Source of the DNA: Deltaproteobacteria bacterium
Lineage (GTDB): Bacteria > UBA10199 > JACPAL01 > JAHFST01
Direction: 5' to 3'
DNA: 64,000 bases
Assembly (NCBI GenBank): GCA_023265625.1
Contig: JAHFST010000014.1
Coordinates: 8,005 to 72,004 of the forward strand
Positions 1 through 55,177 of the stretch are shown here, piece after piece (positions within the stretch are counted from its first letter, which is position 1; each line of letters starts with the position of its first letter). The notes below the pieces were generated by a model. The model did no database searches. It worked only from the letters and a program-made list of their open reading frames with translations, and had not been told where the DNA came from. Made by a program: the position numbers and the translations under genes.

Positions 1-183
1 GAACGCGAGCTCATTCTCAAGGCCTTGCAAAAAAGCGGTGGCAACAAAAACCAGGCGGCGATGCTCTTGAAGTTGAATCGGACGACGTTGTTGGAGAAAA
101 TCCGAAAATGCCGCCTGGAGAAGGAGGTTAAATCACTGACTCATGGAACCGGTACCCAACAGACAACTGCTGCTGGTCGATGA
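1..183 (+). CDS. sigma54-dependent transcriptional activator, C-terminal fragment (Fis-type HTH); 5' end outside window
   Basis: Frame 1 reads ERELILKALQKSGGNKNQAAMLLKLNRTTLLEKIRKCRL..., the typical Fis-family HTH tail of NtrC-type activators. TGA at 181-183. Overlaps the next gene by 41 nt. Confidence 0.6.
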   Translation, partial: ERELILKALQKSGGNKNQAAMLLKLNRTTLLEKIRKCRLEKEVKSLTHGTGTQQTTAAGR

Positions 184-1570
184 CGAACCAGCGTTGATCG
201 AGTTATTCCAAAGAATAGCCCAGAAGAAATCGTACGGCCTGCTGCTGGCCCGCGACGGGGGCGAGGCCTTGGAAATTCTCACCAAACATCCGGTGGATGT
301 GGCCCTGCTCGATTTGAATCTCAAGGGGTTATCCGGGCTGCAAGTCTTGGAACATCTTAAAAAAACACAGGTGGATACCGAGGCCATCGTGATCACGGGT
401 CGCGCGACCGTGGAATCCGCCATCGCCGCCCTTAAAATGGGGGCTTACGATTACATCACGAAACCCTTTGACGATGTGGATCAGCTTTGCCTGCGCATTG
501 AGAAGGCGATGGAAAAAGTCGCCCTGGTGCGCCGCTTGCATAAATTAGAGCAGGGTCATGTGGCGTCGGGGGATTTTTTGGATTTTGTCGGTAAGAGTCA
601 GAAGATGCGGGAGGTTTATGCCCTGATCGGGCATGTGGCCTCCGGTCTGTCGAATGTGCTGATCTTGGGAGAGAGCGGCACGGGCAAGGAGTTGGTGGCG
701 GCCGCGATCCATCAGAAGAGTGAACGACGCGACGGCCCTTTTACGGTGATCAATTGCGCCGCCGTTCCCGAGACCTTGTTAGAGAGCGAACTCTTTGGTT
801 ACGTCAAAGGGGCTTTTACGGGGGCGGTGGGCGATAAGACGGGTTTGTTTGAACAGGCGCAGGGCGGAACCATTTTTTTGGATGAGATTGGCGATATCTC
901 GGCCGCCATGCAGGTGAAGTTGCTCAGGGTCTTGCAAGACGGGGAGATTCGTCGCGTCGGGGGCAATCGGGTCTATTATTCCAATGCGCGGGTGATTGCG
1001 GCCACCAATCAGGACTTGGCGCAACTGGTCAAAAAGAAACTGTTTCGGGAAGACCTGTTTTATCGCCTGAACGTGATCAGCATCCAAGTGCCGCCGCTTC
1101 GGGAACGCGCCGAAGACATTCCCTTGTTGGCCTACCATTTTTTGCGGGAATTTGCCGAGCGCTTGAGGCGCCCTGTGCAAAAAATTTCCGTGGACGCCAT
1201 GCAATCGTTGCAGGCCTATCGTTGGCCCGGCAATGTGAGGGAGTTGGAAAACGCGATGGAACGCGCCGTCGTGTTGACGCACGGGGACACCGTTACGGCC
1301 AAGGATTTGCCCGCCAATTTGCTCGGGGCGGTTTTTTATCTGCCGGATGACCATGAACAACAGGAATTAAACCATCTACCTTATCAGGAGGCCAAAGAGC
1401 GCGCGGTGAATAACTTCAATAAAAACTATGTCCTTTATTTGCTAAAACAGGCGGGCGGAAATCTTTCCACGGCGTCCTTGAAGGCGGGGATGGATCGGAG
1501 TAATTTTAAAAAGATTGTAAAAAAATGCGCAGTTAACGTAAAAGAAATCAAGAAAGGGCTGATGGGATGA
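143..1570 (+). CDS. NtrC-family sigma54-dependent response regulator (REC + AAA+ + Fis HTH)
   Basis: Canonical receiver (LLVDDEP, LLDLNL, ITG, TKPF). Walker A GESGTGKE, GAFTGA loop, C-terminal HTH. Confidence 0.9.
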   Translation: MEPVPNRQLLLVDDEPALIELFQRIAQKKSYGLLLARDGGEALEILTKHPVDVALLDLNLKGLSGLQVLEHLKKTQVDTEAIVITGRATVESAIAALKMGAYDYITKPFDDVDQLCLRIEKAMEKVALVRRLHKLEQGHVASGDFLDFVGKSQKMREVYALIGHVASGLSNVLILGESGTGKELVAAAIHQKSERRDGPFTVINCAAVPETLLESELFGYVKGAFTGAVGDKTGLFEQAQGGTIFLDEIGDISAAMQVKLLRVLQDGEIRRVGGNRVYYSNARVIAATNQDLAQLVKKKLFREDLFYRLNVISIQVPPLRERAEDIPLLAYHFLREFAERLRRPVQKISVDAMQSLQAYRWPGNVRELENAMERAVVLTHGDTVTAKDLPANLLGAVFYLPDDHEQQELNHLPYQEAKERAVNNFNKNYVLYLLKQAGGNLSTASLKAGMDRSNFKKIVKKCAVNVKEIKKGLMG

Positions 1571-2937
1571 ATACCGGACGCATTGGGGTGGTCGCCTTAC
1601 AGGAAAAATTCGACAAGAAGATCTCAGCCCTCCTCGGCAAGGAAGGGTGGGAGGTGCGCGAATTGGAACCCCATGTCCTCATCGAGGGGCCCTTGCCCGA
1701 TGTGGATGTTGTCTTGCTTTATTTCGGCAAGGATGGAGCGGAGGCCGGGTTGGCCTTTCTCCGGGCCGTTAAAGAGAAGAGCGAGGAGTTGCCGGTCATC
1801 TGTCTTTCCAAGTCGGTGGGGGTGGAACAAGTGGTTGGCCTGATGAAGGGCGGGGCGTTTGACTACTTTGAGATGCCCCCGCATTTTGGCAAATTAAAGC
1901 TCTCGTTGGGCAATGCGATTCGCACCACCCATCTGACCAAGAAGGTCATGGTGTTGGAGAGTCAAGTGGGGTGGCAGGGCAAGTTTGATGATTTGGTGGG
2001 CACCTCGGCCTCCATGTTGGAAATTTTCCAGATGATCCAGACGGTTTCCAAGAGTAATGCCACCGTTTTGGTCATGGGGGAGAGTGGGACTGGGAAGGAA
2101 TTGGTGGCGCGGGCGATTCACCGTCATTCGGACCGTTCCGCGAATAAATTTATCGACATCAACTGCGGGGCGATCCCAAAAGAATTGTTGGAGAACGAGC
2201 TCTTTGGTCACGAGCGAGGCGCCTACACGGGCGCCGATCGCCTGTACATTGGCAGTTGTGAAAGGGCCGGTGGTGGCACGCTCTTTTTAGACGAAGTCAG
2301 CGAGATGGATGCCGCCTTGCAAGTGAAGTTGCTGCGCGTCATTCAGGAGCGTTGTCTGACCCGCGTGGGTGGGACGGAGCGCATCGAGCTTGATATCCGG
2401 ATTGTCGCCGCCACCAACAAAGACCTGCGGGCGGAGGTCACCAAGGGGACTTTTCGCGAGGATCTCTTTTACCGGCTCAATGTGGTGCCGATCGTGATTC
2501 CTCCCCTGCGCGTCCGGCCCGACGATGTCCCGCTGTTGGCCCAACATTTTTTGGAAAAATTTAACGAAGAAAATCGCAAGCGCTTCAAAGGATTCACCCC
2601 GGAGGCGATGGAAGTTTTGATGAACTATGATTGGCCGGGTAATGTGCGGGAATTGGAGAATAATATCGAACGCGTGGTGGTCTTGTCTGATGACAGCAAG
2701 GTCAAGCCCGCTCATTTACCGCGTTTTATTGTGAATACGGAAAAGAAGCTGATCAAAAACCTGTTTCCCGGCGGGGATGCGTATCAGAAGATATTGTCGC
2801 TCGATCAGGTGGAACGTTATGCGATCGAAGCGGCGATTAACCGGTGCCGCGGGGATGTGCTGGTGGCGGCCCGTAAGCTGGGGATAGGCCAGGCCACCCT
2901 CTACCGCAAAATCAAACGATATAAAATACGCGTGTAA
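1567..2937 (+). CDS. sigma54-dependent activator with degenerate (pseudo)receiver N-domain
   Basis: [22 protein letters not shown]-type AAA+ core and HTH (GIGQATLYRKIKRY). The N-domain lacks the acidic pocket: LLYFGKDG replaces LLDxxMP, and FEMP replaces xKP. ATGA overlap with the upstream gene. Confidence 0.85.
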   Translation: MNTGRIGVVALQEKFDKKISALLGKEGWEVRELEPHVLIEGPLPDVDVVLLYFGKDGAEAGLAFLRAVKEKSEELPVICLSKSVGVEQVVGLMKGGAFDYFEMPPHFGKLKLSLGNAIRTTHLTKKVMVLESQVGWQGKFDDLVGTSASMLEIFQMIQTVSKSNATVLVMGESGTGKELVARAIHRHSDRSANKFIDINCGAIPKELLENELFGHERGAYTGADRLYIGSCERAGGGTLFLDEVSEMDAALQVKLLRVIQERCLTRVGGTERIELDIRIVAATNKDLRAEVTKGTFREDLFYRLNVVPIVIPPLRVRPDDVPLLAQHFLEKFNEENRKRFKGFTPEAMEVLMNYDWPGNVRELENNIERVVVLSDDSKVKPAHLPRFIVNTEKKLIKNLFPGGDAYQKILSLDQVERYAIEAAINRCRGDVLVAARKLGIGQATLYRKIKRYKIRV

Positions 2938-2960
2938 GGGCGTATGCAATACGCCCCTAC
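2934..2960. repeat. palindromic element copy (GTAAGGGCGTATGCAATACGCCCCTAC), intergenic
   Basis: Begins inside the stop codon of the upstream gene. Same family as 4832-4859 and 53957-53984. Confidence 0.8.
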
Positions 2961-2969
2961 AGGTTTCCT

Positions 2970-3986
2970 ATGGCTGTATATGCTGTCATCATGGCGGGAG
3001 GAAGTGGGACGCGGCTCTGGCCGCTCTCGCGCGAGGGCTTTCCCAAATTTCTCTTGCCGCTCTTTCCGGCATCTTTGTTGGAGCTGGCGGTGCGCCGTGT
3101 GCAACCGTTTATCCCCCTGAAAAACGTGCGGATTGTCTGCGGTGTCAAACAGTACCAGGCGATTCGCAAGTCGCTGCCATTTCTCAAAAAACAGAATTTT
3201 ATTATCGAGCCGACGGGCCGTAACACCGCGCCTTGTATTGGCTTGGCGGCGGCTATTTTGTCGCGACAAGACCCGCGGGCCTTGCTCGTGATCTTGCCCG
3301 CCGATCCGTTGATTCGCAATCGACGCTCGTTTCAAGCGAGTGTGCGGCAGGCGGTGCGATTTGCGACCCAGCACGAGGCGATAATGACGGTGGGGATTAA
3401 GCCGCGGTCGCCGCATACGGGTTATGGCTACATTGAAACGGAACAGCCCAAGCAAGCGGGTGTGTTTAAGGTCAAGCAGTTTACCGAAAAACCGGATGCC
3501 AAGACGGCTCAACGTTATGTGCAGGGTCAGCGTCATCTTTGGAACACCGGTATCTTTGTCGGACGCGCGGCGGTTTTTCTTTCTGAACTCAAACGCTGGG
3601 AACCGAAGCTTGCGCGGGGTTTAGGGACACTCGCAACGGGTCGGGTCACCTTGGCGGCTTATCGTCGCTTGCCGGCTATCTCGATTGACTATGCCGTGGC
3701 CGAACGCAGTGACAAGATGTGGACGGTGCCGGCGACGTTTGATTGGGAGGATATTGGTGATTTGCAGGTGTTGAGCAACTTGCAAGGTCAGGCCCCTGAT
3801 GTGTCCATTGGTTCAAATCGCGTCGCTGTCATCGGCAAAAAACGATTTGTCGCCACGGTTGGGGTGCAAGATTTGGTGATTGTCGAAACCCCCGATGCCT
3901 TGCTGATTGTCCAGAGAGATCAGGTGCAGCGTGTCAAAGAGGTAGTTGACCTCTTGAAGAAAAAAGGGGTAGCACGCCTGCTGTGA
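2970..3986 (+). CDS. manC: mannose-1-phosphate guanylyltransferase-like nucleotidyltransferase
   Basis: N-terminal AVIMAGGSGTRLWPLSR sugar-nucleotidyltransferase signature. 338 aa, no PMI domain. Confidence 0.75.
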   Translation: MAVYAVIMAGGSGTRLWPLSREGFPKFLLPLFPASLLELAVRRVQPFIPLKNVRIVCGVKQYQAIRKSLPFLKKQNFIIEPTGRNTAPCIGLAAAILSRQDPRALLVILPADPLIRNRRSFQASVRQAVRFATQHEAIMTVGIKPRSPHTGYGYIETEQPKQAGVFKVKQFTEKPDAKTAQRYVQGQRHLWNTGIFVGRAAVFLSELKRWEPKLARGLGTLATGRVTLAAYRRLPAISIDYAVAERSDKMWTVPATFDWEDIGDLQVLSNLQGQAPDVSIGSNRVAVIGKKRFVATVGVQDLVIVETPDALLIVQRDQVQRVKEVVDLLKKKGVARLL

Positions 3987-5320
3987 CGCGCCTTCCGCTG
4001 GATGACTACGCACAGTTTACCCGCCACCTGGGCGATCGGGAATTCTTCGGCATGAAGCTCGGCCTGGAACGAGTCCAGGCGGTCTTGCAGCGCCTGGGAA
4101 ATCCGGAACGAAATTTTTCTTCTATTCATATTGCCGGGACTAACGGTAAGGGATCGACCGCCTGCTTTTTGGCAGGCATCCTGCGTCAGGCTGGATACAG
4201 GGTAGGGCTCTATACCTCGCCTCATCTTGTTGATTTTTGCGAGCGGATCCGTGTGGGGGCGCAGCATCCGCCAGAGGCGGATCAGCCTCCGGCTGAAGCG
4301 GCGCCCCTACATATCACCCCCGATGATGTTCTGAGGTTGGGACGAATCATTACGGATTGTGAAACCGAACCCTTGACCTTTTTTGAGATGACGACCGTGA
4401 TGGCCCTGCTGTATTTTGCGGAACATAATACAGGGGCGTATGGCGATACGCCCCTACTGGCCATCTTAGAGACAGGTTTAGGCGGACGACTGGATGCTAC
4501 CAATGTAGTGACGCCGTTGGTTTCTGTCATCACGACTATCGGGTTCGATCACCAGCAGTACCTGGGGGATTCCTTAGAAAAGATTGCGGCGGAAAAGGGG
4601 GGGATCATCAAACCGGGGGTGCCTGTGGTGTGTGGCGTTAGTGACCCCGGGCCGCGGCAGGTTTTGGAACGGATGGCCGCGGAACGAAAGGCCCCCTGGA
4701 TCCCTGTGGGGGCGTATGGCAATACGCCCCTACAAGACCGCGATTATCCCTTGGGTTTGGCCGGGGAATATCAGCGGTTAAATGCGGCCTTGGCGGTGGC
4801 GGTTGTTAATTTATTGGCAAATGGGGGTCCTGTAGGGGCGTATTGCAATACGCCCCTACAAAACATCACCGATGCACAGATTCGCGCAGGCCTGCTCCAG
4901 GCCCGTTGGCCAGGCCGATTAGAATCAATCCAAACCCCGGGAGGCCAGGACATCCTGCTAGACGGCGCCCATAACGTGCCAGCCATGCAAGCATTGGTCG
5001 ATCACCTCAAAAAAACCTATGCCCAGCGCCCGATCCATCTTCTATTTGGAGCCATGTCGGACAAGGATTGGCCGGCGATGCTGCGTTTGTTAGCCCCCCT
5101 CTGTCAGCAGGCGACATTTGTCCGGCCTAACCTCAAACGGGCCGAAGATCCCCTACGGTTTCAAGAATTAGCCCAATCCGTCGGGTTACGATCCGAGGTG
5201 GTCCCAGCCGTGGCAAAGGGGTTCTCCCAGGCTATGGCAGGCCTGCCTCGGGATGGTCTCTTACTGGTGACGGGGTCTTTGTTTGTCGTTGGAAACGTTC
5301 ATGAATTGCTAAAATTTTAA
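3983..5320 (+). CDS. folC: bifunctional folylpolyglutamate synthase / dihydrofolate synthase
   Basis: Mur-ligase family motifs HIAGTNGKGST, ETGLGGRLDATN, DGAHN. ATGA-type overlap with manC. Carries three in-frame palindrome copies. Confidence 0.85.
   Translation: MTRLPLDDYAQFTRHLGDREFFGMKLGLERVQAVLQRLGNPERNFSSIHIAGTNGKGSTACFLAGILRQAGYRVGLYTSPHLVDFCERIRVGAQHPPEADQPPAEAAPLHITPDDVLRLGRIITDCETEPLTFFEMTTVMALLYFAEHNTGAYGDTPLLAILETGLGGRLDATNVVTPLVSVITTIGFDHQQYLGDSLEKIAAEKGGIIKPGVPVVCGVSDPGPRQVLERMAAERKAPWIPVGAYGNTPLQDRDYPLGLAGEYQRLNAALAVAVVNLLANGGPVGAYCNTPLQNITDAQIRAGLLQARWPGRLESIQTPGGQDILLDGAHNVPAMQALVDHLKKTYAQRPIHLLFGAMSDKDWPAMLRLLAPLCQQATFVRPNLKRAEDPLRFQELAQSVGLRSEVVPAVAKGFSQAMAGLPRDGLLLVTGSLFVVGNVHELLKF
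4430..4457. repeat. palindromic element copy inside folC (ACAGGGGCGTATGGCGATACGCCCCTAC)
   Basis: Translated in frame as T-GAYGDTPL-L. Confidence 0.8.
4706..4733. repeat. palindromic element copy inside folC (GTGGGGGCGTATGGCAATACGCCCCTAC)
   Basis: Translated in frame as V-GAYGNTPL-Q. Confidence 0.8.
4831..4860. repeat. palindromic element copy inside folC (TGTAGGGGCGTATTGCAATACGCCCCTACA, perfect 30-nt palindrome)
   Basis: Translated in frame as [10 protein letters not shown]; exactly 10 codons. Confidence 0.85.
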
Positions 5321-14286: not shown

Positions 14287-16795
14287 GTGGATTTTAGCCG
14301 TTGCCGGGATCGTGGCGTCGAGCGCGATGTTTGCGGCAGAGATGACTCCGCTCGGCTCCAAGGGGCCTAACCCCACGGTGGCCCCGCCGCCCGAGGTTAA
14401 TGCCCCCGCCGTGCCGCCAGCTCCGAGGCCGGGTAGCATTCCCGCGACGGTAGCCCCCGTGCCGGAGACTCAGGCCGTCGCGCCGCTCCCTCGTACGAAT
14501 CCTCCCGCATTTTCCCCGGACACATTGCCTGCCAATCCTCTGATCTCTCAAGACAGAAATGCGCCAGCCCCCGTTACCCCCCGGTCTGAGACGGTGCCGG
14601 ATGTGTCTCAGCCCTTAACGGGTGTGCCCGCAGAAACCATCGCCCAGATTGAGAAGCAGGTTGAAGAGGAGGGGATGTATTTTAATGTGGCGGATGAGGA
14701 TATCCGTGAGGTGATCAAGCAAATCAGTCGGGCCTTGGGGAAAAATTTCTTATTGGACGATAAGGTCAAGGGCAAGATCAGTATTATCAGTGAGCGCAAG
14801 ATGACGAAGGACGAAATTTGGGAGGCCTTCCAGTCGTCCCTAGAGGTGATTGGGTACACCTTGGTGCAAGGTCCGGCTGGCCTGCTTCGCTTTGTGCCCA
14901 CCAAAGAAGCCATCCAGAGTCCGATTGATTTCTACACGGAAGATACCCCTTTTACCGATCGGTTTATCACTCGCCTGATCACCTTAAAAAATATCAGTGC
15001 GACGGATATGTCGAATGCCATCAAGGGTATGGTTTCCAAAGAGGGTAATCTTTTTGCCTACCCCGTGACCAATACTCTCATTATTACCGATACGGGGACG
15101 AATATTGATCGCCTGGTCCGTTTGATTCAGCAACTTGATCGAGAAGGGCCCCAGGAGGTCATGGAGATCATTGCCGTACTCTATGCGGATGCCAAGGATG
15201 TGGCGGCTAAAATCAGTCAGATCTACGATGCGGATAAGGGGCAGGCCGCTGCTGCGCCCCGTCCCAGAAGGGCGGGGGGCAAGGATGAGGAAGATGAGAA
15301 GGCGATCCGGAAAATTATTCCCGACGAGCGCACCAATTCATTGATCGTCTTGGCCTCCAAGCGTGCCATTCAGGATATTCACGATTTGGTGAAGCAGTTG
15401 GATGTGCCGCTGACGAAGGGTTCTGGGGTGGTGCATGTTTACTATCTGAATCATGCGAGGGCCAAGGATATCGCCGCCGTCCTGTCGGCCTTGAGCGGAC
15501 AGGTGGGGCAAACCAAGGGGGACGACAAGGGCAACAAGACTGGGGCAGCCGCACTCAGCGGATTGTCGGGACAAGCCAGCCAGTTTTTTGACAAATGGAC
15601 TGTCACCGCCGACGAATCCAATAATGCCTTGGTGATTACGGCCGCCCCCAAGGATTATGACACCTTGGTGAATAGTGTCATTGCCAAACTCGATATTCCC
15701 AGACGCCAGGTTTATGTGGAGGCCGTCATTGTCGAGCTTTCCGTTTCTCAGGATCAACAACTAGGGACGGGGGCCATTGGCGGCAAGAGCTTGAATCTTG
15801 GGGGTGCCGATTTGGCCTTGTTTGGCAGCACCTTTGGTTTTCTGGATCCGACCAAACTGCTGAGCGGGGCCATTGGGGCTGGCAGTAACGATACCAACAC
15901 CATCAACACCCCAAGTTCTACGGGGGGAGCGGCGAATAGTATCTCGGTGCCGGGTTTTTTCACCGCCTTGCAGATGACTCAGGGAAACACCGAGGTCAAT
16001 ATCCTTTCCACCCCGAATATTTTGACCCTTGATAACGAAGAAGCTGAGATCAAAGTGGGTCAAAAAATCCCGTTTCCCAGTGGCACCGCGACCACTATTG
16101 GCGGGAGTTTTCAAACAACCTTTACGCGTGAAGATGTGGCGCTCACTCTGAAAATTAAACCGCAAATTAGCGAGAGTGATACGATTCGTTTGCAGGTGGA
16201 ACAAACCGACCGCGAAGTCTTGCCGAACCAGCAGCAAGCCGTTGTAGCCTCTGGCGGCGGTCCCGCCACGACGGAGCGCTCCTTGAAGACCTCGATCGTG
16301 GCCACCAACCACCAGACCATCGTGTTGGGCGGATTGATCAAGGATAAGAATACCACCGTGACGAACAAGATCCCTCTCTTGGGGGACATCCCCGTCCTGG
16401 GGTATCTCTTCAAGACACGCCAGAAAAACAAGCAGAAGGTTAATTTGGTGGTTTTTTTGACCCCGCATATTATTCATGATGCGCGTGATTTCCTCAGCAT
16501 TTTGGAGAAAAAGATCGATGAGAAGAATGCCTTTATCAGTGAAAATTTCAGTAAGTCGCAGCAGAAACAGATTCACCGTTCCCTGGAAGTTCATGCCAGT
16601 CAGTTGCTCAAATATACCGGGCCGAGCGCTCAGTATACGGATGAGGATAAATTCCCGATCGGTGAAATAGCCCCGACTTACGCCCCTACCGAGCCGGCGC
16701 CTGTTGATAAGGCTGCAGCCCCCGCTAAGAAAAAAGCTCCTCCGGTAAGCGCCCCCCCTTACCATCCCGAGGAAGATATCGATCTCGCGCCCTAA
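14273..16795 (+). CDS. gspD: type II secretion system secretin GspD
   Basis: Signal peptide MKSGRWILAVAGIVASSAMFA, N0-N3 domains, secretin core (VPLLGDIPVLGYLFK). Pro-rich linkers at both ends. The ORF-track start at 14240 is an upstream extension. Confidence 0.9.
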   Translation: MKSGRWILAVAGIVASSAMFAAEMTPLGSKGPNPTVAPPPEVNAPAVPPAPRPGSIPATVAPVPETQAVAPLPRTNPPAFSPDTLPANPLISQDRNAPAPVTPRSETVPDVSQPLTGVPAETIAQIEKQVEEEGMYFNVADEDIREVIKQISRALGKNFLLDDKVKGKISIISERKMTKDEIWEAFQSSLEVIGYTLVQGPAGLLRFVPTKEAIQSPIDFYTEDTPFTDRFITRLITLKNISATDMSNAIKGMVSKEGNLFAYPVTNTLIITDTGTNIDRLVRLIQQLDREGPQEVMEIIAVLYADAKDVAAKISQIYDADKGQAAAAPRPRRAGGKDEEDEKAIRKIIPDERTNSLIVLASKRAIQDIHDLVKQLDVPLTKGSGVVHVYYLNHARAKDIAAVLSALSGQVGQTKGDDKGNKTGAAALSGLSGQASQFFDKWTVTADESNNALVITAAPKDYDTLVNSVIAKLDIPRRQVYVEAVIVELSVSQDQQLGTGAIGGKSLNLGGADLALFGSTFGFLDPTKLLSGAIGAGSNDTNTINTPSSTGGAANSISVPGFFTALQMTQGNTEVNILSTPNILTLDNEEAEIKVGQKIPFPSGTATTIGGSFQTTFTREDVALTLKIKPQISESDTIRLQVEQTDREVLPNQQQAVVASGGGPATTERSLKTSIVATNHQTIVLGGLIKDKNTTVTNKIPLLGDIPVLGYLFKTRQKNKQKVNLVVFLTPHIIHDARDFLSILEKKIDEKNAFISENFSKSQQKQIHRSLEVHASQLLKYTGPSAQYTDEDKFPIGEIAPTYAPTEPAPVDKAAAPAKKKAPPVSAPPYHPEEDIDLAP

Positions 16796-25011: not shown

Positions 25012-25585
25012 GACAAAATATTCGCCCTTACAAAAGATGTCACTGGAAAATGTTTTCAACGCGTATCAAGTGCTGTCTCCGCAAAATAAACTGGTGGCCA
25101 CGGCCATTGGCGGCATTGCGGTGCTTTGCTTGCTGTTATTTCCCTTAACGGTTATCTCGAGGCAGTTGAGCGCCTTGAAGAAGGACATTACCACTTCGCA
25201 AAAATCGTATCGCCAGGTTTCCGCCAAGGTGGAGGAGCTGGAACAGGTGAAGACCGATTTGGAGGCCTTGGAAGCGACCTTCAAAAAGGACAATGCCTCC
25301 CTGACCAGTAAAATCGAGGGGATGGCCCGGGATGCGGGATTGACGGTCAGCCAACTCAAGGAGAAGCCCGCCCAGGAGACTGATTTTTTGGAGATTAATA
25401 CCGTTGAGGTCAAGATCTCCCAGGCGGCCTTGCCGGAGTTGATGGATTTTTTCTACAAAATCGAGCATGCCCCCAATGGCCTGATGAGAATTCGGAAACT
25501 AGAATTGAAGACGCAACGGGCGAGCCGGCAGCATTTAGATGTTACTTTTGAGGTTGCCACCTTAGTCCTAAAGAAGGAAGCCTGA
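25001..25585 (+). CDS. gspM: GspM
   Basis: Single TM (LVATAIGGIAVLCLLLFPL), size and position. GTG 25001 has a GGAGGGGAG SD; ATG 25037 is an alternative start. Confidence 0.55.
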   Translation: MALKTKYSPLQKMSLENVFNAYQVLSPQNKLVATAIGGIAVLCLLLFPLTVISRQLSALKKDITTSQKSYRQVSAKVEELEQVKTDLEALEATFKKDNASLTSKIEGMARDAGLTVSQLKEKPAQETDFLEINTVEVKISQAALPELMDFFYKIEHAPNGLMRIRKLELKTQRASRQHLDVTFEVATLVLKKEA

Positions 25586-26490
25586 TGCCCCTGTGGCTTA
25601 AAGTCATTGTCTATCCGATTGTCGGGTTGTTGTTTCTAGTCTTTTTTTCGCTGCTGCTATTTCCATTCGATAGTCTCAAGGATCGCGGCATCCAAGAATT
25701 GCAGCATAGCTTGGGGGATGGTTACGATATTCAAATCAAGAGTGTGTCCTACCGCCCCTTGACGACGGTGTTGCTCAAGGGGGTGAAGATCGCCCTGAAG
25801 ACGGATGAAAAACAGGCGGTCAAGTTTGAGAAGGTGAAGTTGCACTTCAGTCCTGCCGCCTTGTTCAATAAGGAAGTTGCGTTAGACTTCGATCTCAAGG
25901 ATGAGAAAAGTCATGTCGAGGGGTCATTTCTGAACAATGCGGAGGTTTTAAAGATTGATTCCAGCCTGGAACATTTTGATTTGGCGATCGTGCGGTTTTT
26001 GTTGGATCGTTGGAAGATCCCGATCGAGGGGATTTTGTCAGGAACGATTGCGCTGGAATGGTATTGGGATAACCCGTTGAGAAATATGGGCCAGATGAGT
26101 TTACAGTGGGAGACCCTGCAGCTGGGGGCCATGCAAATCCCCGGGGCCATCGATCTGCCCGCCATGGCGTTGGTCTCGGAGGGCAAGGGGGATTCTAAGA
26201 TTGACCTGAAAATTAATCGGGCGAATTGGACGGTGGAAGACTTGGAGTTACATGGCACCGACCTCGATCTGACCCTGAATGGCAAGGTCTACGGGGCCAA
26301 GCAATTGGATAATTATCGGTTCAACCTGAGAGGCGATTTTAAGCTCGCCCCTGAATTGATCCAGAAGTTGCCGCTATTAGCCGTGATCGATGCCCAAAAG
26401 ACCGCAGAGGGGGTCTATCCCCTCACTGTGACCGGACGGTTGTCTAAGCCGAATATTCGGATTGGTGAGTTTAAGGTGCCGTTGTTCTAG
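25585..26490 (+). CDS. gspN: GspN-like protein
   Basis: N-terminal TM, about 300 aa, last gene of the gsp operon, TGATG coupling with gspM. Assignment is by position. Confidence 0.5.
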   Translation: MPLWLKVIVYPIVGLLFLVFFSLLLFPFDSLKDRGIQELQHSLGDGYDIQIKSVSYRPLTTVLLKGVKIALKTDEKQAVKFEKVKLHFSPAALFNKEVALDFDLKDEKSHVEGSFLNNAEVLKIDSSLEHFDLAIVRFLLDRWKIPIEGILSGTIALEWYWDNPLRNMGQMSLQWETLQLGAMQIPGAIDLPAMALVSEGKGDSKIDLKINRANWTVEDLELHGTDLDLTLNGKVYGAKQLDNYRFNLRGDFKLAPELIQKLPLLAVIDAQKTAEGVYPLTVTGRLSKPNIRIGEFKVPLF

Positions 26491-26517
26491 TAGGGGTTCA
26501 AAATTTTGAACCCCTAC
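26490..26517. repeat. perfect 28-nt palindrome GTAGGGGTTCAAAATTTTGAACCCCTAC at the end of the gsp operon
   Basis: Starts in the gspN stop codon. Shares GTAGGGG...CCCCTAC ends with the folC/ruv element. May act as a terminator, but no T-tract follows. Confidence 0.7.
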
Positions 26518-26639: not shown

Positions 26640-29600
26640 GTGAGGCTCCCTCTTTTAACATTACTAACGCTGGCACTTTCTCTGGTGCTGTTTCCTGTCA
26701 AGGGTTGGAGCAATCCTCTGTGTGCTCCTGGGTCTCCCGGCTGTGTGGGCGGGACGACGGGGGGATTTACGACCGGAGGCCTTACGGGAGGGGGGACTCT
26801 CCCTGGTCCCTGTACAAATTTTGATATCAAGCAATGCACGCTGGGGGATCCCTGTAAGACGGCCACTTGTGTGGAATATGTTGATGCAAGTCATGCTAAG
26901 CAGGCGAAGTGTGGGCCTGTGACGGACTTGCCTGATCCTGAGAGTGGGTTGAAGACGGAATGTAATGACCGAGTTTGTGACTCGAACCAAGGTGGATGGG
27001 TCGATAAGCCTCTGGATGGCATTTCCTGCGATGACGGGGATTTGTGCAACGGGAAAGAGGTTTGTCAGGCTGGGAGTTGCCAGGCGGGAGCCAAGGTTGT
27101 TGTCCCAGCGTCAACCACTTGTCAGACGTTTAGTTGCGATACGGCCACTGGACTGGTTGTGAGCAAGAACAAGGCGGATGGGACTCCCATTGCCGATGAT
27201 GGGAATGTTTGCACGAATGACGTTTGCCAAGGGGGAAAAGAGATCCATCCGAATAAGGCCAACGGGACTATTTTAGGCGTTGATGGGAATGCCTGCACTC
27301 AGGATATCTGTCAAAATGGGAAGGCATACCCTGCGGTGAGCGATGGGACCAAGATTGCCGACGATGGCAATCTCTGTACAGACGATATTTGCAAGGCGGG
27401 GAAACCTGTTCATCCCGTATTGTCTGATGGCACTTTATGTAGTGATGGGGATGCCTGCAATGGGCCGGAGGTTTGTCAGTCCGGATTGTGCAAGGCAGGG
27501 ACTCCTCCAGTGAAGCCGCAGGATAGTTTATGCACGACCTATGTTTGCGACAAGATTACAGGTTATGTGGCTCAATCTAAAGCGGATGGAACCCCGATCG
27601 CGGATGATGGAAATAGTTGTACGAACGACATTTGCCAGGGGGGTAAAGAGACCCATCCGGCGACTGCCGATGGAACAAAGATCCCTGATGATGGCAATCC
27701 TTGCACCGTAGATCAATGCAAGGGGGGAAAAGGGGTTCATGAAGCCAATGACAGCCTGATTCCTTCGGATGATGGAAATGAATGCACCAATGATCTTTGT
27801 GTCGGTGGCCAGGCGGTGCATCCAAATAACAATAAAATTTTATCAAGCGACAATAATGTTTGTACAGACGATGTTTGTAAGGATGGCGTCAAATATCCTA
27901 CTAAGGCGGATGGAACTCCCATTGCTGATGACGGGAATATTTGTACGAACGACATTTGTCAGGCAGGTAAAGAGGCTCATCCGGCGATGGCCGATGGAAC
28001 AAAGATCCCTGATGATGGCAATCCTTGTACCGTAGATCAATGCAAGGGGGGAAAAGGGGTTCATGAAGCCAATGACAGCCTGATTCCTTCGGATGATGGA
28101 AATGAATGCACCAATGATCTTTGTGTCGGTGGCCAGGCGGTGCATCCAAATAACAATAAAATTTTATCAAGCGACAATAATGTTTGTACAGACGATGTTT
28201 GTAAGGATGGCGTCAAATATCCTACTAAGGCGGATGGAACTCCCATTGCTGATGACGGGAATATTTGTACGAACGACATTTGTCAGGCAGGTAAAGAGGC
28301 TCATCCGGCGATGGCCGATGGAACAAAGATCCCTGATGATGGCAATCCTTGTACCGTAGATCAATGCAAGGGGGGAAAAGGGGTTCATGAAGCCAATGAC
28401 AGCCTGATTCCTTCGGATGATGGAAATGAATGCACCAATGATCTTTGTGTCGGTGGCCAGGCGGTGCATCCAAATAACAATAAAATTTTATCAAGCGACA
28501 ATAATGTTTGTACAGACGATGTTTGTAAGGATGGCGTCAAATATCCTACTAAGGCGGATGGAACTCCCATTGCTGATGACGGGAATATTTGTACGAACGA
28601 CATTTGCCAGGGAGGTAAAGAATCTCATCCGGCGGTGGCCGATGGAACCGTCCTGGGTAATACGGACAGCAATATCTGTACCCAGGACCGGTGCATTAAT
28701 GGCCAAGCACAGCATGAGGTTATTCTAGCGGAAGATGACCACGATGCTTGCACGAAGGATCTTTGCGATCCCACCTTTGGGATGAAACATGAATTGATCG
28801 ACAAGAGCGAAATGGACGACAACAACGACTGCACGATCGATTATTGTGACAAAAACAACGGGGTGCAACATAAAGCTGTTGGCTCGAATGATGGTGATGC
28901 CTGCACGGTAGATACCTGTGATGCACAGGGGGGTGTCAAGCATGGCCCAGTAGACACGGATGATGGAGATCCATGTACCCTGGATTCTTGTGATCCGGCA
29001 ACCGGAGTCCAACACATCGCCATCGCTGATGAAGCTTGCGTTGCAAAACCGGCTTGTACGCCCATTGTTTGTCCGGCCGTTGTCCAGGCGGATGAGAATG
29101 GCAAGGCCATCTTGGCTTGCCAAATCAATTTCAATTTTGAATTTGCGGATGAGTTTCAATACGTCCAATACAAAGAAGGTATTTTTATTGATTGTAACCA
29201 AGACGCGTTATTTGCACAGGGAGATGATATTGATGGGTATACTGGGCAGTGCCAGTCGCACGTTACGTTTATCTCAAACCAGGCGACCCAGTTGAATATC
29301 CAGGCCTATGTGCGCAAATCAATCATTGGACAAGGTCCGATCACCTTTTGTCCCGCAGCGGTTACCGTGATGCCGCCCTTGCCGGCTTTCAAGGAACCTC
29401 CCCCTCCTCCTCCGATAACTCCCCCAACTCCTGTGAAAGATCCCCAGACACCCCCGAAGGATTCCCCGATTATTCCGGAACCTATTGCGGATCATAAAAC
29501 AGACGCGGATCCAATTGTAACCGCTCCTGTTGAGAATCCTATTCCCCAAGATAAAATTCCGACTCCTGTGGCACAGCCAGTTGACACCAATCCTTCCTCT

Positions 29601-30395
29601 GCCAATCCACCTTCTACTGATACTCCCAGTGCGGTTGTCCCAGAACAAAAACAGAACGGCCAAATTGTCAATGTTGCCAAGGAACAACAGCATCAGGAAG
29701 CGATGCCAAGTCTTGTTCTTCCCAACCTTCAGGTCATGATTTGCCCCGAGGGATGGCACGAGGCGATCGTCAGTTCTGGGCCGAACATGGGGAAGAGGAT
29801 ACCTTTGGATGAGGCCTGTCCTGATTTTCCTGATGAGCTTTTCAAAAAAGGTTTAGATAATTTAGATCCCAATGTGAAGGCGCTGGTAAACCCGATGGGT
29901 GCCTTTGTTCATGACTCAGATAATAAAGAATTATTGCATCAGATTAGCCAACTCACGATTTCGGCCTTTGACAGTTACCTCAAGGGGGCAGATCTTCCGA
30001 TACTGGGTGTCAGTCTCCCTAAGGGGGAATCACAAAATGGGACTTTGGTGCTCGAAGATCAATTGCCATCCAGGACTGTATTGAACAAATTGTTGCTTCG
30101 TGGCCAGTCCAGTATCTCCGTTAAGGACGATGGTTCCATCCTGGTGCCTTCGATCAGTCCTGCGGAACTTGCTCAGCTGGTGCCGAACCAGCCTCAGGCG
30201 TTGGCACTCAATGCGACGTCTCCATTTGGCCCAGCGGACTCGATCTTCACCGTGGTTCCCGTTTTGGGAACAGAAGGGGGAGGTCGCGGGGGCTGTAGTT
30301 TGATGTTGGAGTCCTCGGTACGTTCTCATCAGGCTGTTGGGGAGGCCTTGCAAAAGATGTCATGGCATGATTGGATTGTTTCCTGGTTCCATTAG
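26640..30395 (+). CDS. large secreted Cys-rich repeat protein (about 27-aa DDGNxCTxDxCxxGxxxH modules), Pro-rich spacer, C-terminal GGCSL motif
   Basis: Signal peptide MRLPLLTLLTLALSLVLFPVKG. Dozens of two-Cys modules. PPPPPITPPTPVKDPQTPP linker. GTG start. Confidence 0.8.
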   Translation: MRLPLLTLLTLALSLVLFPVKGWSNPLCAPGSPGCVGGTTGGFTTGGLTGGGTLPGPCTNFDIKQCTLGDPCKTATCVEYVDASHAKQAKCGPVTDLPDPESGLKTECNDRVCDSNQGGWVDKPLDGISCDDGDLCNGKEVCQAGSCQAGAKVVVPASTTCQTFSCDTATGLVVSKNKADGTPIADDGNVCTNDVCQGGKEIHPNKANGTILGVDGNACTQDICQNGKAYPAVSDGTKIADDGNLCTDDICKAGKPVHPVLSDGTLCSDGDACNGPEVCQSGLCKAGTPPVKPQDSLCTTYVCDKITGYVAQSKADGTPIADDGNSCTNDICQGGKETHPATADGTKIPDDGNPCTVDQCKGGKGVHEANDSLIPSDDGNECTNDLCVGGQAVHPNNNKILSSDNNVCTDDVCKDGVKYPTKADGTPIADDGNICTNDICQAGKEAHPAMADGTKIPDDGNPCTVDQCKGGKGVHEANDSLIPSDDGNECTNDLCVGGQAVHPNNNKILSSDNNVCTDDVCKDGVKYPTKADGTPIADDGNICTNDICQAGKEAHPAMADGTKIPDDGNPCTVDQCKGGKGVHEANDSLIPSDDGNECTNDLCVGGQAVHPNNNKILSSDNNVCTDDVCKDGVKYPTKADGTPIADDGNICTNDICQGGKESHPAVADGTVLGNTDSNICTQDRCINGQAQHEVILAEDDHDACTKDLCDPTFGMKHELIDKSEMDDNNDCTIDYCDKNNGVQHKAVGSNDGDACTVDTCDAQGGVKHGPVDTDDGDPCTLDSCDPATGVQHIAIADEACVAKPACTPIVCPAVVQADENGKAILACQINFNFEFADEFQYVQYKEGIFIDCNQDALFAQGDDIDGYTGQCQSHVTFISNQATQLNIQAYVRKSIIGQGPITFCPAAVTVMPPLPAFKEPPPPPPITPPTPVKDPQTPPKDSPIIPEPIADHKTDADPIVTAPVENPIPQDKIPTPVAQPVDTNPSSANPPSTDTPSAVVPEQKQNGQIVNVAKEQQHQEAMPSLVLPNLQVMICPEGWHEAIVSSGPNMGKRIPLDEACPDFPDELFKKGLDNLDPNVKALVNPMGAFVHDSDNKELLHQISQLTISAFDSYLKGADLPILGVSLPKGESQNGTLVLEDQLPSRTVLNKLLLRGQSSISVKDDGSILVPSISPAELAQLVPNQPQALALNATSPFGPADSIFTVVPVLGTEGGGRGGCSLMLESSVRSHQAVGEALQKMSWHDWIVSWFH
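27582..28648. repeat. 3.3 tandem copies of a 324-bp (108-codon) unit inside the Cys-rich protein gene
   Basis: Copies 27906-28229 and 28230-28553 look identical by eye. Copy 27582-27905 differs only in its first ~130 nt. A partial fourth copy runs to ~28648. The ORF track shows identical spurious ORFs at period 324. Confidence 0.9.
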
Positions 30396-53945: not shown

Positions 53946-53956
53946 ATGTGGTTCCT

Positions 53957-53984
53957 GTAGGGGCGTATTACAATACGCCCCTAC
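53957..53984. repeat. palindromic element copy (GTAGGGGCGTATTACAATACGCCCCTAC) between ruvA and ruvB
   Basis: Same family as the folC copies. Confidence 0.85.
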
Positions 53985-53988
53985 AATG

Positions 53989-54588: not shown

Positions 54589-54617
54589 ATTTTCATAACT
54601 CCCATAACACCCCCCAG

Positions 54618-54685
54618 CCCCCCTCTTACATTAAGAGGGGGGAGAAAACACCACTGTCTTTACCCCCTCTTAATGTAAGAGGGGG
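54618..54685. repeat. inverted pair of CCCCCTCTTA-NNN-TAAGAGGGGG hairpins between ruvC and ruvA
   Basis: 54618-54642 (11-bp stem, loop CAT) and 54663-54685 (10-bp stem, loop ATG) are reverse complements of each other, 20 nt apart. Confidence 0.75.
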
Positions 54686-54694
54686 ATGGGGGAG

Positions 54695-55177
54695 TTAGCT
54701 TTTCAATACCTGATTCGTATGCAAATGGCAAATAGCCACTGCCAGTGCATCCGAGGCGTTTTCTTCGGCGAGTTCCGGGAGTTTTAAGATCATCTGCACC
54801 ATCTTTTGGATCTGTTCCTTGCCCGCCCGGCCATAGCCCGTGGTGGCCTGCTTGATGGCGGTTGCGGAATATTCAAAGACGGGGAGTCCCGATTGGGCGG
54901 CGGCCAACAACGCGACACCGCGGCTCTGGCCCAGTTTCAGGGCACTGGCGACATTTTTGGCGAAGAAGACCTGTTCGACGGCGACGGCATCGGGACGATA
55001 CGTGGTGAGGGCCTGGAGCAGGGCGCGATGGATTTGTTCGAGACGTTCGGGGAGGGAAGCGGCCGGTTTGGGCCTGAGACAACCGTTATCGACATGGACC
55101 AACTGACCGCCATTTTTTTCGACCACCCCATAGCCCATGAAGTGACTGCCCGGATCTATCCCAAAGACCCGCATCAA
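54695..55177 (-). CDS. ruvC: crossover junction endodeoxyribonuclease RuvC
   Basis: RVFGIDPGS..., conserved acidic residues, ...[11 protein letters not shown]. Confidence 0.92.

Follow-up and report, generated by a model that had tools for sequence, protein, structure and literature searches.

The folC gene (3983..5320, plus strand) lies in the 64,000-nt stretch of contig JAHFST010000014.1, from a Deltaproteobacteria bacterium, that was analysed here and is referred to below as the window. It is an intact open reading frame (ORF) of 445 amino acids, predicted to specify dihydrofolate synthase/folylpolyglutamate synthase, and it hosts four palindromic insertions. We consider it probable, at roughly 0.8, that these palindromes are 28-nt GTAG...CTAC double-foot repetitive extragenic palindromic (REP) sequences, the substrate of a transposase of subclass 2.4 (group 4 of the REP-associated tyrosine transposases, RAYTs), and that they have been kept in folC as frame-preserving passengers in loops of the enzyme. 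A first-pass annotation had drawn attention to three copies of a palindrome lying in one frame of folC and encoding the peptide G-A-Y-[G/C]-[D/N]-T-P-L; exact core matches within the ORF and the encoded residues bear this out, but a fourth element, at 4253-4310, had been missed.

The core of the element, GGGGCGTAT-N4-ATACGCCCC, is matched exactly at four places in the window (4433-4454, 4709-4730, 4835-4856 and 53960-53981), three of them in folC and one in the spacer between ruvA and ruvB; shuffled sequences gave an expectation of 0.01, and 0 of 100 shuffles reached four matches. With their flanks these matches become 28-mers of the form GTAG-GGGCGTAT-loop-ATACGCCC-CTAC, in which a GT[AG]G foot and a CTAC 3' end enclose a GGG/CCC stem bottom, a 9-bp stem and a 4-nt loop. 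The stem consists of GGGGCGTAT paired with ATACGCCCC over 9 bp, starting GGG(G), with at least three consecutive G-C pairs at its bottom. Subclass 2.4 of the TnpA_REP transposases (= RAYT group 4) is defined by the motifs NH[IFV]H, WQ and YIxNNP, and its double-foot REPs, which are often found in frame within the transposase gene, have 5' GT[AG]G, 3' C[TC]AC and a stem whose lowest three pairs are G-C (Quentin et al., 2018, BMC Genomics 19:475; PMC6006769). The foot, its reverse-complement end and the G-C stem bottom of the window element match this published definition, which identifies the element as a double-foot REP of subclass 2.4.

Altogether the window holds four exact copies, one variant and one composite, the 58-nt fourth element of folC, in 64 kb, against a chance expectation of 0.01, and five of the six fall within 1.9 kb (P ~2.5e-5 under uniform placement). 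The DNA hairpins have predicted energies of -10.5 to -14.4 kcal/mol, and every copy folds far better than its shuffled counterparts (z -4.0 to -8.6). The 5' foot is GTAG in copy 3 of folC, in the ruv copy and in an element of a second family at 26490, GTGG in copy 2 and the 58-nt element, and degenerate in copy 1 (ACAG) and in a variant at 2934 (GTAA); the 3' foot, CTAC, terminates every copy in the window, including the 58-nt element. The folC copies had been described as perfect over 28-30 nt, and this holds for copy 3 but not for the 5' feet of copies 1 and 2. As had also been noted, two of the three reading frames of the 28-mer are open, and the third contains TAG. No RNA family in Rfam overlaps the elements. 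A half-site at 16678-16689 and a CCCCTAC at 5150 were discarded for want of a palindrome partner, and a match with two mismatches at 25020-25031 was not counted as a copy.

Copy 1 of folC (4430..4457, ACAGGGGCGTATGGCGATACGCCCCTAC, hairpin z -5.3) encodes T150-L158 (TGAYGDTPL) and adds a net 7 aa. In an alignment of this FolC with 24 orthologues of 45-58 % identity (25 sequences), it corresponds to a clean 7-residue gap in 24 of 24 orthologues, and the same gap is present in the sequences of the solved enzymes from T. maritima (1o5z) and L. casei (1fgs). Its position directly before the conserved Mur-ligase loop, pointed out in the first-pass annotation, is correct, the site lying just ahead of the strand LAILE-TGLGGRLDATN that leads into ETGLGGRLDATN; in an AlphaFold2 model of the protein it occupies the loop that joins helix 133-149 to strand 158-163 and has a predicted local distance difference test score (pLDDT) of 75. 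Copy 3 (4832..4859) is the perfect 28-mer GTAGGGGCGTATTGCAATACGCCCCTAC and encodes V284-L292(Q293) (VGAYCNTPL), a 9-10-aa insertion opposite a 9-10-residue gap in 23 of 24 orthologues and a 9-residue gap in the L. casei folylpolyglutamate synthase 1fgs. It lies between helices 262-279 and 297-306 (pLDDT 55). Together with the flanking T and A it forms a perfect palindrome of 30 nt (4831-4860), which is 10 codons long, as had been proposed, but starts at a third codon position. The orthologue that forms the exception for copy 3, P0003, has a different double-foot REP at that position. Copy 2 (4706..4733, GTGGGGGCGTATGGCAATACGCCCCTAC, hairpin z -5.6) encodes V242-L250 (VGAYGNTPL) in the loop following strand 239-241 (pLDDT 65). 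The region is of variable length, here some 4-6 aa longer than in the nearest orthologues, and on the alignment copy 2 is only probably an insertion.

The fourth element (4253..4310, GTGGGGGCGC...GCGCCCCTAC, 58 nt) encodes V91-L109 and corresponds in the alignment to a 15-aa insertion, HPPEADQPPAEAAPL. It combines the REP foot and the bottom of the REP stem with two internal hairpins, ATCCGCC-AGA-GGCGGAT and CAGCC-TCC-GGCTG, and folds into a Y shape (-23.3 kcal/mol, z -5.2); the pattern GGGGCG-N25-55-CGCCCCTAC has one match in the window against 0.00 expected. The insertion is missing from 21 of the 24 orthologues, and the remaining three have insertions of their own there. All four folC elements begin at codon position 1, by arithmetic from the ORF start, and share one frame, a coincidence to which we gave no weight because with two usable frames its chance is about 1 in 8. 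The closest orthologues are without all four elements and none of the 24 has these copies, so that copies 1 and 3 and the fourth element stand as in-frame intragenic REPs opposite orthologue gaps in an intact ORF. Alignment and model together indicate that four extra loop peptides (15, 7, about 5 and 9-10 aa) sit on what appears to be an otherwise normal FolC; GAYGDTPLLAILETGLGGR is an example of a junction peptide to be expected from these inserts.

That the host gene works is suggested by several observations; its being essential, as the first-pass annotation has it, is for this organism an assumption. The protein contains the Pfam domains Mur_ligase_M, with a weak score of 32 bits, and Mur_ligase_C, and has about 8000 homologues, the best of 52 % identity; those named by their source are called dihydrofolate/folylpolyglutamate synthase. 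Sixty-three columns of the alignment are invariant over all 25 sequences, this FolC included, and the P-loop GTNGKGS, ETGLGGRLDATN and the DGAHN motif are all intact. The AlphaFold2 model has a mean pLDDT of 86.5 and a predicted template modelling score (pTM) of 0.89, and Foldseek aligned it to E. coli FolC (1w7k) with a template modelling (TM) score of 0.80. The pLDDT dips at residues 91-110 (55-58), 151-160 (75), 241-250 (65) and 281-290 (55) coincide with the four insertions, each of which falls between secondary-structure elements of the model; a further dip at residues 21-30 (65) is unrelated to them. The gene lies downstream of manC, and the same manC-folC arrangement is present in the orthologues P0003 and P0006. 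The intact motifs, the confident model and this conserved arrangement lead us to conclude that folC here is a working, presumably active gene with four tolerated loop insertions, and the preservation of frame by all of them implies purifying selection. An identical FolC protein is encoded on three contigs, one of which belongs to another ENA sample and, compared with the window along 15,320 nt, shows 99.993 % identity and a single mismatch, at position 671; this, and the differences in loop and foot between the copies, exclude an artefact of assembly. Directly upstream of manC-folC (window 1-2937; L122:3615-8955) we observed a PAS histidine kinase gene followed by three consecutive genes for sigma-54-dependent regulators, the last of which has a TAA stop derived from a REP.

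Two further copies, for which no strand is assigned, had been reported as intergenic. The first, at 2934..2960, is a related repeat but not the sequence that had been quoted: this 27-nt variant, GTAAGGGCGTATGCAATACGCCCCTAC, has a 3-nt loop, a foot mutated to GTAA and a hairpin z of -4.0. It lies 10 nt upstream of an ORF resembling mannose-1-phosphate guanylyltransferase, and it is not purely intergenic, since the sigma-54 regulator ORF 1567..2937 terminates in its TAA (2935-2937). The second, at 53957..53984 (GTAGGGGCGTATTACAATACGCCCCTAC), does lie in a spacer, the 43-nt interval between ruvA and ruvB, both on the minus strand, and has the exact core, but with TTACAA and not TTGCAA at its centre. 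In relatives whose RuvB is 85-86 % identical, the ruvA-ruvB spacers are 16 nt or 6 nt long and free of REPs; the window spacer is 27 nt longer than the 16-nt one, so the relatives present an empty site. RuvB of the window is 80 % identical to that of metagenome-assembled genomes (MAGs) labelled Deltaproteobacteria and 85-87 % identical to that of other contigs, of which two or more derive from groundwater metagenomes. Outside the 28-mer, copies 2 and 3 of folC and the copy between the ruv genes have extra bases in common, CCT before and AA after, making 33 nt or 11 codons (4705-4736, 4829-4862 and 53954-53986); a somewhat larger mobile unit or a preference for certain targets could account for this.

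A second double-foot REP family is represented at 26490..26517 (GTAGGGGTTCAAAATTTTGAACCCCTAC, hairpin z -5.6; again without an assigned strand), and ORF 25585..26490 closes with a TAG whose final base is also the first G of this element. Shortly downstream is an ORF of 1251 aa (26640-30395), secreted-looking, with many Cys-rich repeats of about 40-45 residues around DDGNxCTxDxC. The 106-nt ruvC-ruvA spacer contains, at 54609-54695, the inverted hairpins CCCCCCTCTTA-CAT-TAAGAGGGGGG and CCCCCTCTTA-ATG-TAAGAGGGGG, which look like a doublet of the kind known as REPINs; ruvC and ruvA overlap in relatives, without this doublet, and a very similar doublet is in frame in folC of the orthologue P0009 (L128).

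The 28-mer is by no means confined to this lineage. A scan with the 22-mer core, taking one genome per species, yielded at least 120 loci (L001-L120) with 127 copies among them, and the loci listed come from MAGs labelled Cyanobacteria, Anaerolineae/Chloroflexales (Chloroflexi-type), Planctomycetes, Nitrospirota, Omnitrophota, Atribacterota, groups of the candidate phyla radiation, Salinibacteraceae and many others. Among these loci GTAGGGGCGTATTGCAATACGCCCCTAC is almost invariant across MAGs with many different phylum-level labels. REP families are usually described as lineage-specific, and a near-invariant 28-mer points to wide horizontal spread of a partner transposase or to strong constraint. 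The GTA/TAC flanks are kept in about 90 % of the 127 copies listed, though they lie outside the search pattern. The commonest loop is TGCA (57 of the 127), and most copies are accordingly perfect 28-nt palindromes. A longer inverted repeat was rejected because complementarity of the flanks past 28 nt (0.27-0.36 per position at 89 sites, against 0.25 by chance) is near the chance level, and the unit is therefore the 28-mer. The sole signal in the flanks across the other genomes is a purine-rich 3' side.

Insertion into coding sequence is also found elsewhere, with 17 of 126 copies listed lying in long open frames. Counting as real host genes those confirmed by Pfam, the in-frame 28-mer is present in genes for an APRT-NUDIX-MTAP fusion, an Eco57I-type methylase and a TonB protein; it is also in frame in two proteins whose C-terminal regions resemble, by eye only, secretion-sorting tails. 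Several long ORFs over copies were judged spurious, their translations being of low complexity and rich in Arg, Ala and Gly. In an Omnitrophota MAG (L036) we noted an ORF of about 750 aa, spanning position 3343, with two in-frame copies (VRAYRNTPLR and VGAYRNTPLR), a further instance of more than one insertion in a single frame.

All ORFs within 1.5 kb of the 127 copies were clustered without prior assumption, and the only family recurring in more than four loci was a Y1 transposase of about 190 aa, found in 7 of the 120 loci listed. The family matches Pfam Y1_Tnp (PF01797) and has NHxH, WQ and YIxNNP motifs; against the NCBIfam model for the REP-associated tyrosine transposase it scores E 1e-17 and 64 bits, below the model's cut-off of 80 bits. 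Copies of the 28-mer border the transposase gene, sit in frame inside it, or do both; the internal site is between the HuH motif (MPNHxHG) and the WQRNYYEH tyrosine region. At the position of the REP, most of 120 database homologues read RGVLQYAPT and several VGAYCNTPL, the other open frame of the same DNA, in a search that was biased toward the motif because the query contained it.

Evidence of movement comes from the folC orthologues themselves. In P0003, 49 % identical to the window FolC, a sister double-foot REP, GTAGGGGCGGTTCGCGAACCGCCCCTAC (L121:1224-1251), occupies the position of window copy 3, sharing its frame and the CAA codon that comes next; it differs from the window element by three compensatory pair changes. 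The same sister REP lies in frame inside a subclass 2.4-type RAYT gene of an unrelated MAG (L115:2322-2351). The insertion in P0003 looks young, since P0006, closely similar to P0003 in its N-terminal sequence and flanking DNA, has an empty site with a 27-nt difference. Exact junctions and any target duplication were not readable for P0003 against P0006 or for the ruv spacers, where the flanks are too diverged; the net gain is +27 nt in both. In P0009 and P0024, other hairpin repeats are in frame at the FolC loop that hosts the fourth element of the window, and together with P0003 these cases indicate that variable loops of FolC have received palindromic repeats repeatedly. The expectations of the first-pass annotation have thus largely held: neither the orthologues nor the solved FolC sequences have the peptides of copies 1 and 3, and copy 2 is at a place where FolC varies in length; the loops that hold the insertions are those of depressed model confidence; the motif recurs at non-coding sites of the window and in many other genomes; and the gene is not a product of misassembly.

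Our current working hypothesis is that the element is a small non-autonomous REP whose single-stranded hairpin would serve as the substrate of an HuH/Y1 REP-associated transposase. A RAYT of this organism would have moved the copies, which would have landed in the manC-folC region and elsewhere in this lineage; within folC, only those events that kept the frame, avoided the frame containing TAG and hit tolerant loops would have survived. Most likely the copies do not serve the enzyme and are carried as passengers, either neutral or slightly deleterious, and we infer that their clustering reflects short-range spread. A number of observations weigh against this hypothesis. No RAYT gene was detected when two RAYT proteins were run by tblastn against the 64-kb window and the 6 kb preceding it (L122). 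The unit is 28 nt, yet the net gains are +21, +27 and +27 to +30 nt; 28 not being a multiple of 3, extra bases or small accompanying changes are needed. The best folC relative in the databases searched, at 52 % identity, is too distant for dating the insertions or reading their exact junctions. The crowding of five of the six copies into 1.9 kb goes beyond what passive tolerance alone would give. Stems are perfect in the three 28-nt copies of folC while feet have decayed, which could reflect selection on the hairpin and not recent arrival. Lastly, we know of no experimental demonstration of REP transposition in vivo for any RAYT. The features left unexplained may each owe something to short-range spread, to gene conversion or to selection acting on the hairpin as an RNA or DNA structure.

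It is possible to speculate further, although we regard it as unlikely, that the double-foot REPs of subclass 2.4 are adapted to coding sequence and that the folC cluster arose by short-range hopping of such a coding-compatible element. The symmetric 28-mer reads alike on both strands and has two open frames of three, the third supplying a stop. In this genome the REP appears to travel with a few flanking bases, and since CCT-28mer-AA amounts to 33 nt or 11 codons, its insertion would not shift the frame. An in-frame copy in the transposase gene could seed a new REP population after horizontal transfer, which would explain the near-invariance of the 28-mer across phylum labels.

A quite unlikely alternative is that the hairpins were retained in folC because they act in cis, as RNA stem-loops affecting translation speed or mRNA half-life or as DNA sites for host proteins, and so constitute a regulatory device for folate metabolism. 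In E. coli, REPs and the mosaic elements built from them (BIMEs) reportedly influence mRNA turnover and are bound by integration host factor (IHF) and gyrase. The 9-bp stems are perfect in the three 28-nt copies in spite of free third codon positions, with only the feet of copies 1 and 2 decayed, and such a role would also accord with the highly non-random clustering in and just upstream of folC; recent insertion or gene conversion, however, predicts perfect stems equally well. The remaining copies, at gene ends and in the ruvA-ruvB operon spacer, occupy positions typical of REPs with RNA-level effects (PMC3733652), but the identical sequence is present in unrelated genes and spacers across many phyla, and none of the 24 orthologues, the closest included, has these copies. 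Very unlikely, in our view, is the production and spread of the copies by host processes without any RAYT, whether template switching at quasi-palindromes, conversion by REPs elsewhere in the genome or duplication events local to folC. The CCT and AA shared by copies 2, 3 and ruv look as if flanks had been copied too, yet flank complementarity past 28 nt was near chance at the 89 sites. Most copies are palindromic through the loop (TGCA, GGCC, CGCG), which recognition of a hairpin alone would not need; on the other hand, the association with a Y1 transposase gene is strong, and the presence of one 28-mer in many phyla is hard to explain without a transferable protein partner. The sister REP of P0003, with its three compensatory changes at the same site, could represent conversion of an older insertion, but the empty site in P0006 makes that insertion look young. 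It is scarcely credible that folC is a decaying or non-functional copy freely gathering insertions while a second, clean folC elsewhere does the work: four insertions in one 1.3-kb gene are unusual and the Mur_ligase_M score is weak, but the ORF is intact over 445 codons with its three motifs present, the model is confident outside the insertions, the manC-folC arrangement is that of P0003 and P0006, and every insertion keeps the frame, which implies purifying selection.

The folC gene is a well-documented natural case of a central metabolic enzyme tolerating four hairpin-encoded loop insertions, and it marks four permissive sites on the FolC/Mur-ligase fold. It also extends the host range of double-foot REPs, adding an uncultivated lineage that has MAGs labelled Deltaproteobacteria as its nearest named relatives. 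For the biology of REPs and RAYTs, the 28-mer near-unchanged across phylum labels and the sister REPs sharing a position in folC may be of interest.

Comparison with known systems places the element among described ones. The Rickettsia palindromic elements (RPE), to which the first-pass annotation had likened it, were reportedly described by Ogata and colleagues in 2000 as in-frame palindromic repeats in functional genes that add surface peptides. RPE-1 is about 100-150 bp long and is not known outside Rickettsia or to carry a GTAG foot. The likeness lies in a dispersed palindrome inserted in frame and adding short peptides; the elements described here are 28 nt (58 for the composite), have a GTAG foot and a host other than Rickettsia, and bear no sequence relation to the RPEs. 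The closest known relative is instead the GTAG double-foot REP of subclass 2.4. The shorter RPE-4 and RPE-6 belong to a different class, CGTC (PMC3733652). REPINs and their RAYTs in Pseudomonas and E. coli (RAYT groups 2 and 3; Bertels and Rainey, 2011; PMC3116915) resemble our case in linking GTAG-footed hairpins to a Y1 transposase, a domesticated single-copy protein thought to mobilize them. REPINs are inverted REP doublets, almost always extragenic, lineage-specific and vertically inherited. Here, in contrast, we find a solitary, symmetric 28-mer that hardly varies between phyla and is frequently located in coding sequence, and in folC the single hairpins lie 100-270 nt apart with complementarity ending at 28 nt.

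Searches of the literature with the 28-mer DNA and the encoded peptides as text strings gave no match, and the family was therefore identified from its features. In-frame insertion of REPs, several to a gene, has already been published (PMC3733652; PMC6006769), which makes the case less novel than the first-pass annotation implied. GTAG REPs contained entirely in ORFs of known function have been catalogued, among them two insertions per gene in uvrA of O. terrae and Thioalkalivibrio, genes in which the TAG of the GTAG foot serves as stop codon, and Xanthomonas recB orthologues with different REPs at about the same site; the intragenic copies, being in loops or linkers, were proposed to be neutral (Di Nocera et al., 2013, BMC Genomics 14:522; PMC3733652). 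Each of these situations has its counterpart here, in REPs wholly within a gene, several per gene, a stop codon drawn from the foot and different REPs at one site. The differences are that four elements in a 1.3-kb gene make a denser case, that this REP family and host lineage were not covered in that study, and that folC is not among the intragenic REP targets listed there (PMC3733652). The double-foot REPs of Quentin et al. (2018) are closer still, agreeing in feet, G-C stem bottom, a transposase of about 190 aa, in-frame copies between the HuH and Tyr motifs and a distribution scattered over many phyla; their study (PMC6006769) covers transposase genes and flanks and not host genes such as folC, and the transposase of this organism is unseen in our case. 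Such elements, the transposases that accompany them and their habit of lying in frame inside genes are all published, and no new kind of element or mechanism is revealed; what is new is the host, the gene and the unusual density of the insertions, the notable points being the tight clustering in folC and a sister REP at the same folC site in an orthologue of 49 % identity.

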